Source: Escherichia coli (GTDB taxonomy: Bacteria > Pseudomonadota > Gammaproteobacteria > Enterobacterales > Enterobacteriaceae). From it: 64,000 nucleotides of DNA. Under the pieces are notes generated by a model. It was not told where the DNA came from. It was given only the letters and a program-made list of their open reading frames with translations, and ran no database searches. A program made the position numbers and the translations under genes. Shown here in pieces: positions 47,510-48,324 of the stretch. The stretch lies in the NCBI RefSeq assembly GCF_030013595.1, contig NZ_CP122768.1; one strand, 5' to 3'. Numbering within the stretch: the stretch's first letter is position 1; every line of letters starts with the position of its first letter.

Positions 47510-48324
47510 CCCCTGAATCCTGCCGGGATCTGGCTGTAGTCCACGTTGTCGTAACTGGCTTTGAAGTACGGGTCCTCACGTCTGGCTGCAGATACCGCAG
47601 GAACTTCCCAGGATTCTTCGAAATGACGATCCGGACCAAAGAACGTGACAGCCTGTTTCACAAATTGTGTGCCGCTGTTACCCATCGCAGATACCCAGCC
47701 CGCATAGCGTTTCACACCTTCCAGCATGGTTTCGGGGTTTACCCCCTCATTCAAACGGGCTTTCCAGGCTTTGAAGGCTGCAGATTTTGAATTGCCACCA
47801 GCACGTTTGGGATATGCCAGCCATGCCTGCTCAAACTCCGGAGAGTATTCCGGTCGGTTTGAACGAACTCGCACAGACTCATCAGCAGATGCACCAACAG
47901 CTATTGGTTCATTGACTGGTTCTTTGACTGGTTCAAAAGAGTGACTGGTTCTGGGTGAATCTCCTGCACTACCCCCTAGTGCAACTCCTGCACTACCTGG
48001 TGAATTTGCTGCACCAGATAGTGAATTATTTGCACTACCCCCTAGTGAATCTCCTGCACCATCCAGATGAAGGAGATAGATATTACTTGAGTTACCTTTT
48101 TCACCTTTCCGGGTGACTTTTTTTACCAGCCCGGACTCACAAAGGGCCGCAATATGATTCATCACAGAACGTTTGCTAATCTCGCACTGGTCAGCAATAT
48201 GCTGGTAGCTGGGCCAGCACTCACCCTGATCGCTGGCATTATCAGCCAGCTTGATCAGAACCAGTTTTCGCAATGGATTACCCACTCGAATTTTCATCGC
48301 TTTAACCATCAGCTCCATACTCAT
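47506..48324 (-). CDS. replication initiator protein (N-terminal wHTH, iterons inside gene)
   Basis: N-terminal HTH (SYQHIADQCEISKRSVMNHIAALCESGLVKK); internal array of ~20-25 bp direct repeats encoding a Gly/Ser-rich linker, as in lambda O. Confidence 0.65.
   Translation of the reverse strand: MSMELMVKAMKIRVGNPLRKLVLIKLADNASDQGECWPSYQHIADQCEISKRSVMNHIAALCESGLVKKVTRKGEKGNSSNIYLLHLDGAGDSLGGSANNSLSGAANSPGSAGVALGGSAGDSPRTSHSFEPVKEPVNEPIAVGASADESVRVRSNRPEYSPEFEQAWLAYPKRAGGNSKSAAFKAWKARLNEGVNPETMLEGVKRYAGWVSAMGNSGTQFVKQAVTFFGPDRHFEESWEVPAVSAARREDPYFKASYDNVDYSQIPAGFRG
47957..48060. repeat. iteron-like direct repeats (putative prophage replication origin)
   Basis: Four imperfect tandem copies of CTCCTGCACTACCCCCTAGTG-like units. 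Confidence 0.5.

Follow-up and report, generated by a model that had tools for sequence, protein, structure and literature searches.

The window, as the whole stretch of 64,000 nucleotides of Escherichia coli DNA analysed here is called, carries a prophage that looks complete. Its rightward early operon contains, in this order, genes for a Cro-like protein, a CII-like protein, a Rha/Ash protein, a small ORF, the replication initiator, a PerC-like protein, Dam, a LexA-DBD protein, and RusA. The replication module is made up of one initiator gene and is devoid of any helicase or loader gene. The initiator gene and the parts of its product with a confident or distinctive character are the following:

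47506-48324, minus strand: replication initiator gene, 272 aa (ORF, HTH_36 and phrog_270 matches)
48061-48324, minus strand: winged-helix DNA-binding domain, aa 1-88 (AlphaFold2, pLDDT of 93 or more in most of the domain)
47605-47853, minus strand: helical C-terminal domain, aa 158-240 (pLDDT 95-98)
47509-47604, minus strand: C-terminal tail ending ...DYSQIPAGFRG (pLDDT about 50-65)

The protein matches the Pfam family HTH_36 (PF13730; E 1.8e-11, 44.1 bits, cut-off 25) and, over residues 3-271, phrog_270, annotated as "replication initiation protein" (E 2.1e-88). The AlphaFold2 model (mean pLDDT 80) shows an N-terminal winged helix, a disordered linker, a helical C-domain, and the C-terminal tail. 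The winged-helix domain is modelled with helices at residues 3-11, 17-29, 40-47, and 51-64 and wing strands at 67-73 and 79-85, the putative recognition helix being ...EISKRSVMNHIAAL (aa 48-61). The pLDDT values are below 50 at aa 94-126 and 144-152, regions that correspond to the repeats described below and to the element that follows them. The repeat-encoded linker between the two confident domains is probably disordered according to this model, indicating that the protein can tolerate repeats at this place. Foldseek searches with the N-domain gave weak, generic matches to dimeric winged-helix proteins (ArsR/MarR/PadR, DnaD-N 2v79; E at least 5e-3) and nothing with the C-domain, and sequence searches for relatives of solved structure gave no meaningful match. 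For the C-domain, the PHROG matches bear the annotations DnaD-like helicase loader or primosomal protein, and no Pfam family was found. This one C-domain type is joined, across mosaic junctions, to many different N-domain/iteron cassettes.

A preliminary description of this locus compared it to the lambda origin, which lies inside gene O. The comparison holds for the layout of dyad iterons within a gene, as discussed below, but not for the protein. Membership of the lambda O family was rejected, since the initiator has no match to PF04492 at E ≤ 0.01 or to TIGR01610 at E ≤ 0.1, while lambda O itself, used as a control, scores 5.7e-36 and 5.4e-39, respectively. A direct BLASTP comparison of the initiator with lambda O was insignificant (0.019 over a 22-residue stretch).

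The tail shows a distribution of its own. The ending ...IP(A/P)GFRG is present in every examined initiator whose module is without a phage helicase, namely those of the window, mEp460_4F5, SfIV, 689R5, and also POCJ13, which has a DnaC-like loader only, and it is common even to initiators that are otherwise unrelated. Initiators located ahead of DnaC-like/DnaB-like genes end in ...SGFSEQDYGxxxxNW or ...GLGxMSDxFGxSxxxLxF. The comparison covers the window (47509-47604, minus strand) and the loci L083-L086, L092-L095, L099, and L100. The initiator tail may be a partner-specific docking peptide.

Tandem-repeat finding, which had been proposed as a check, located an array at 47955-48059 (period 24, 4.6 copies, 63% matches, score 84), that is, within the initiator ORF, where direct repeats had been reported. 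The preliminary description counted four copies; read as a motif, the array consists of five sites spaced 24/21/21/24 bp, which are located at positions 266, 290, 311, 332, and 356 of the gene on the coding (minus) strand. Their cores, delimited by the motif and the dyad profile, are:

48045-48059, coding strand: iteron 1 core, GTGCAGGAGATTCAC
48021-48035, coding strand: iteron 2 core, GTGCAAATAATTCAC
48000-48014, coding strand: iteron 3 core, GTGCAGCAAATTCAC
47979-47993, coding strand: iteron 4 core, GTGCAGGAGTTGCAC
47955-47969, coding strand: iteron 5 core, GTGCAGGAGATTCAC

The position profile extends each site to a dyad of about 19 bp, T-R-GTGCA-N5-T(T/G)CAC-Y-A on the coding strand. The half-sites are near-invariant and the centre is variable, a pattern that would fit binding by a dimer. 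In the 64-kb window the degenerate dyad GTGMA-N5-TKCAC is present in five copies, every one of them within the array, whereas 0.44 are expected by chance and five were reached in 0 of 100 shuffles; a second cluster of this motif was not found elsewhere in the window. The sites are separated by approximately two helical turns and the first of them begins two codons past the wing of the winged-helix domain. The array encodes residues ~89-124, DGAGDSLGGSANNSLSGAANSPGSAGVALGGSAGDS, which constitute a Gly/Ser-rich linker, as had been pointed out. This is the layout of a lambda-type origin, in which at least three direct repeats of ~15-20 bp, spaced ~20-24 bp, are located at the domain junction of an initiator ORF.

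The selective constraint on the repeats was assessed with orthologues from Raoultella/Klebsiella, Citrobacter, and Pseudocitrobacter, whose proteins are about 68% identical to the initiator. In the linker, synonymous codon changes amount to 0/25, 0/26, and 1/26, respectively, while they affect 48-59% of the same-amino-acid codons in the N-domain plus C-half (Fisher p of 4e-8, 2e-7, and 1e-7 in the same order). The linker is less conserved than the N-domain in amino acids (identities of 0.69-0.72 and 0.83-0.84) but more conserved in nucleotides (0.89-0.90 and 0.73-0.77). In a sliding analysis of the three orthologues, third-codon-position identity reaches 0.92-1.00 in one island only and is 0.2-0.7 elsewhere:

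47911-48063: DNA-conserved island, codons ~88-138, comprising the five iterons and the post-iteron element (third-position identity)

We propose this island as the core of the origin. The orthologues keep the five half-site pairs and the exact 24/21/21/24 spacing, whereas the central 5 nt vary; the information content is 1.4-2.0 bits in the half-sites GTGCA and T(T/G)CAC and 0.7-1.2 bits in the central 5 nt. Differences within the island are essentially non-synonymous and fall at dyad centres or between sites, so that recent neutral transfer does not explain its conservation. These comparisons indicate that the constraint acts on the DNA of the repeats and not on the peptide that they encode. 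A population sample, consisting of 74 scored loci among the 80 closest viral matches (~99% identical, 5 copies in each), was uninformative on constraint, since polymorphism is 0.078 per nt in the island and 0.098 outside, not clearly lower. At some near-identical loci one copy carries a half-site mutation.

Iteron copy number is another source of variation. Near-identical proteins range from 242 to 302 aa and the length difference is confined to the linker, the natural number of copies being 2 (L089/L090), 5 (the window and the 74 viral loci), 8 (L085), or 9 (L087, L088). The assembly collection contains about 90 indexed blocks with the 2-copy allele, a frequency which implies that either a small number of sites is enough or the prophages concerned are defective. 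The number of copies is therefore not strictly fixed. In one allele, GTGCAGGAGTTGCAC is repeated five times in tandem, every 21 bp.

A range of 2 to 9 copies among near-identical genes could also be produced by slippage or unequal crossing-over in an ordinary coding repeat, a Gly/Ser linker whose DNA has no function of its own; units of 21 or 24 nt keep the reading frame and the encoded segment is predicted to be disordered. We find this explanation scarcely credible, because it accounts neither for a linker that changes amino acids with essentially no synonymous changes nor for invariant half-sites around variable centres. Moreover, repeat type follows helix type (see below) and in related lineages the repeats are out of frame. 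Spacings that are not multiples of three are found in mEp044 (23/22/23), LESphi3 (17/17/17/21/23/22), mEp460_4F5 (23/23/24), and lambda (20/24/23), and in the out-of-frame lineages near-identical DNA copies encode unrelated peptides. For instance, L081 contains five or six copies of CCCCTRTGCCGTCAGAAAGCAYAG (spacing 25/23/45/24) that are 89% identical and, being read in different frames, give rise to unrelated peptides.

The DNA flanking the iterons contains a second short repeat, absent from the preliminary description, and a segment of low stability on the opposite side of the array:

47899-47952, minus strand: post-iteron element, GAACCAGTCA x3, encoding PRTSHSFEPVKEPVNEPI (12/17-bp period, 59% AT)
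47913-47922, 47925-47934, and 47942-47951, minus strand: the GAACCAGTCA copies, which follow the array directly in gene direction
48065-48104, 5' of the array in gene direction: least-stable 40-mer of the gene, 68% AT (nearest-neighbour stability)

The GAACCAGTCA repeats encode EPVKEPVNEP. Synonymous changes in the post-iteron element are as scarce as 1/14, 1/13, and 1/12 in the three orthologues, and its sequence is identical in L081 and L082 despite their other iteron types. This element is a candidate unwinding or helicase-entry region. The number of GAACCAGTCA/EPVK units varies, P0018 having one extra and P0024 and P0019 one fewer. The 48065-48104 segment, with a stability z of 3.2 within the gene and 3.0 within 45500-50500, is an alternative candidate for unwinding; conservation of this segment at the DNA level was not found in the orthologues, whereas the 3' flank, the GAACCAGTCA region, is DNA-conserved but third-ranked in instability (60-62% AT, z 1.6-1.9). 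In the lambda control, the 40-mer of lowest stability in gene O lies after the annotated iterons (nt 349-433) and has 78% AT and a z of 3.0. For the adjacent A/T-rich DNA that had been suggested as something to look for, the picture is mixed: the least-stable DNA of the gene adjoins the array, but the flanks are only modestly AT-rich (60-68% AT against 78% in lambda), and at the 40-bp scale GC skew and composition reveal mild AT enrichment only. The position next to the array is a common one: the least-stable 30-mer of the whole gene lies at most 70 nt from the array in 17 of 20 genes, lambda included. In those 20 genes the low-stability flank is mostly the 3' one, and GAACC-type or A-rich 12-mers are found there repeatedly.

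A short A-rich tract with 12-bp periodicity is found repeatedly right behind the array, even in initiators whose iterons are unrelated. It was seen in the window (47899-47952) and in L093, L094, L095, L097, L099, L102, L104, L105, L108, L110, and L112, with examples such as GAACCAGTCAAA, ACAGATAAAGAT, and CAAGAACAGGAA, as well as CAGAGAATACAA, common to Stx2_499 and mEp460_4F5; GAACC motifs recur even in a Pseudomonas phage. The tract could be a common unwinding/helicase-entry element or, alternatively, reflect a conserved acidic EP-rich peptide.

Signals of other kinds were also searched for in this region. A reading as RNA structure was rejected, since the folding of the coding-strand RNA of 47895-48070 is not better than that of shuffled sequences (z = -1.06); no Rfam family is above threshold in this interval, and a mir-875 match (24.8 of 84 bits) was discarded as a chance match to inverted repeats. 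No promoter or terminator was found in the repeat. One terminator-like hairpin is located on the antisense strand at 48101-48116, such hairpins being present at chance frequency.

The relation between the initiator and its sites was examined in a survey of 20 related genes with N-domains 42-100% identical. Recognition-helix type and repeat type correspond one-to-one across the 20 genes, which together display nine site types. The following pairs illustrate this correspondence:

Helix ISKRSVM(N/I)HI: repeat GTGCA-N5-T(T/G)CAC, in six genera including Aeromonas
Helix CSKSAV(R/K)xHI: repeat CCCTRTGCCRYCARAAAGCAY, in four lineages
Helix VSRSTVKSHI: repeat GGGGCAGGAGCTGCC, in three lineages including the Eru5 phage Stx2a_F403
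Helix KRTAMR: repeat GTGAC-N5-GTCAC, in Vibrio D186 and E. coli mEp044

Where similar helices occur in widely separated hosts, as in Vibrio D186 and E. coli mEp044, the site is one and the same, and more helix/repeat types are found in Vibrio, Aggregatibacter, and Pseudomonas phages. Near-identical C-halves are fused to other N-domains that carry their own repeats; L082, for instance, has two copies of GGGCAG-GAG-CTGCCC. Unrelated initiators that have only the C-half or the tail in common also possess their own mid-gene repeats (Stx2_499, 689R5, BcepIL02, mEp460_4F5, and SfIV). However, the helix/repeat match is confounded, because both parts are adjacent and inherited as one block, so that linkage contributes to it.

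If linkage alone were responsible for the match, the sites might be recognised by another protein, such as a host factor or the Rha/Ash, PerC-like, or LexA-DBD products, and the operon does encode several DNA-binding proteins. This possibility seems very improbable to us. Orthologues that keep the sites have DnaC-like/DnaB-like neighbours and, in the stretches examined, no Rha, PerC, or LexA-DBD genes, and a host factor would not explain nine site types that track the helix in enterobacterial and Vibrio phages.

Protein searches also gave some information on how these genes are assembled. In many cluster representatives the match is confined to residues 1 to ~140, with 60-70% identity, and the sequences diverge thereafter; this portion corresponds to the N-domain, the iteron linker, and the post-iteron element. 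L081 and L082 switch exactly at the iteron/post-iteron junction. Two recurrent recombination junctions thus flank the post-iteron element.

The position of the gene is informative as well. The orthologues in prophages of Klebsiella/Raoultella, Citrobacter, and Pseudocitrobacter, as well as in phage PhiR49_2, hold the classic O position, with cI-cro-cII ahead of them and DnaC-like and DnaB-like genes behind, and this confirms the role of the protein as an initiator. The DNA is ~99% identical to that of Stx2k, Stx2c, and Stx2a_WGPS2 phages, mEp460, Ayreon, and SfV orf39. The neighbour genes and a DNA identity of 99.0% to Stx2a_WGPS2 assign the module to the O-only/Eru6 type. It is carried by 881 of 5426 complete E. 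coli genomes and is also found in Stx2a, Stx2c, and Stx2k phages, SfV, ST64B, and mEp460.

Stx2a_WGPS2 is the reference phage of the "Eru6" replication type (PMC8951638), and the passages of that paper dealing with the subject state that nothing is known on how Eru phages replicate. According to the corresponding passages of Zheng, Casjens et al. 2025, 34 of 314 lambdoid phages possess an O homologue only, without helicase or loader, and the replication of this O-only type is not yet understood. Targeted term searches of both papers retrieved no passage that defines an origin, and no specific origin description was found in the literature on SfV, ST64B, Stx2c, CPS-53, or "initiator-solo" modules.

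Intragenic iterons are a known feature of lambdoid phages. Lambda, P22, and L have iterons inside their initiator genes, each initiator with its own, different iterons. In lambda the origin consists of four ~19-bp iterons, bound by the O N-domain, and an AT-rich region. The Stx phages 933W and P27 carry 6 iterons and their O protein is 13 residues longer; binding of O was shown in vitro, and the role of the iterons was tested in the replication of a P27-derived plasmid. The locus described here shares with lambda the dyad direct repeats spaced 20-24 bp, their mid-gene location at the junction of the N- and C-domains in a flexible linker, the adjoining least-stable DNA of the gene, and the place of the gene downstream of cro and cII in the rightward early operon. 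It differs in having five sites instead of four, of another sequence, a weaker AT-rich flank, and no P-type loader gene after the initiator. The parallel between copy number and protein length in 933W/P27 also holds here, where initiator linker length follows iteron number. However, the modules of those phages and of P22 and L encode a P loader or a helicase (gene 12 in P22 and L). A likeness is also found in the O-only phage class of LLS and in Eru6, which have a single initiator gene without helicase or loader and a similar backbone (yfdPQR, no Rec module, many Chi sites). In the LLS relative mEp460_4F5, the N-domain is unrelated and has its own repeats, only the C-terminal tail being in common with the window initiator.

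Iteron plasmids such as pPS10, pSC101, R6K, and RK2 are also comparable. Their Rep proteins are winged-helix proteins, their iterons are about two helical turns apart, and they use the host DnaB without any replicon-encoded helicase. Plasmid origins are normally intergenic and usually contain DnaA boxes, whereas the present array is intragenic and no perfect DnaA box (TTWTNCACA) is located near it. There is only one match with 1 mismatch, at 48097-48105, and the count over the window is at chance level (123 against 116 expected).

The family match of the initiator, the O position of its orthologues, the constraint on the repeats as DNA, and the correspondence between helix and repeat lead to the reading of the locus as an iteron origin. 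On this basis, it is very probable that the five repeats are the iterons of the prophage origin, located inside its own initiator gene; the suggestion of the preliminary description that they mark the prophage origin is thereby reinforced in silico by the DNA constraint, the dyads, the helix/repeat match, and the low-stability flank. We propose that the origin extends over about 47900-48105 and includes the iterons, the GAACCAGTCA element, and low-stability DNA on both sides. From this arrangement we infer binding of the sites by the product of the gene itself, strand opening, origin function, and recruitment of the host helicase. Upon induction, rightward early transcription (cro, the cII-like gene, Rha, and the initiator gene) would lead to synthesis of the initiator, whose N-domain dimers would occupy the five sites on one face of the DNA. 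The occupied sites would form a nucleoprotein complex similar to the "O-some" of lambda, able to destabilise the adjacent, easily melted segment, and the C-domain and the tail would then bring in the host DnaB helicase system. Recruitment of the host DnaB is proposed in view of the lack of helicase and loader genes in the module, and the tail could be the peptide that docks onto the host helicase system.

Sites bound by the initiator might instead have a mainly regulatory function (autorepression or roadblock, copy control, handcuffing), replication starting elsewhere in the prophage. Plasmid iterons also serve in control, the sites are located inside a transcribed early operon, and the AT-rich flank is weaker than that of lambda. 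Even so, a mainly regulatory role is unlikely, since the layout is identical to that of the annotated origin in lambda, the least-stable DNA adjoins the array in most of the genes compared (the 17/20 mentioned above), a second DNA-conserved element follows the sites, and no other motif cluster is present in the 64-kb window. A replication origin remains the preferred reading of the array.

A more ambitious version of this reading, which for the moment is tentative and rather doubtful, is that the locus represents the first defined O-only/Eru6 origin, that it works in the manner of plasmid Rep systems, that the IP(A/P)GFRG tail recruits the host DnaB or DnaB-DnaC to the GAACC-repeat element without a phage loader, and that the nine-type helix-iteron table amounts to a specificity code. 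The gap that is addressed concerns the replication of O-only lambdoid and Eru Stx phages, for which an origin would now be defined to the base pair by sequence analysis. The work also yields a consensus site, a table of helix/site pairs, and the second conserved element. Phage replication drives Shiga-toxin gene dosage. The classic design of intragenic origins is extended, and nothing in it overturned, to a different family of winged-helix initiators and a one-gene module.

Other features of the prophage were observed around the initiator gene. The next gene (47015-47509, minus strand) overlaps the stop codon of the initiator gene and holds the position of lambda P. Its product belongs to the PerC family (yfdN-like) and has an additional winged-helix-like half at the N-terminus (phrog_1324). 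The PerC-like gene is absent from the relatives L088 and L081, indicating that its product is probably not an essential replication partner. Chi sites (GCTGGTGG) number 19 in the window, against 2.2 expected, with 15 of them on the minus strand; they span 33809-52786, clustered in the prophage, and one (47795-47802) lies within the initiator gene.

At 49145-49346 (minus strand), Rfam searches gave strong matches to the C4 antisense RNA RF01695 (83.6 bits, E 5.5e-16) and to isrK RF01394 (67 bits), and a weak c4 a1/b1 target match. All three fall inside the 383-aa Rha/Ash ORF (48542-49693), which PGAP annotates at full length in a near-identical genome. The PHROG match of this ORF covers aa 61-383 only and its Ash domain begins at aa 117, so that the 5' part of the ORF may be a c4 RNA region similar to the immI of P1/P7 and not coding sequence.
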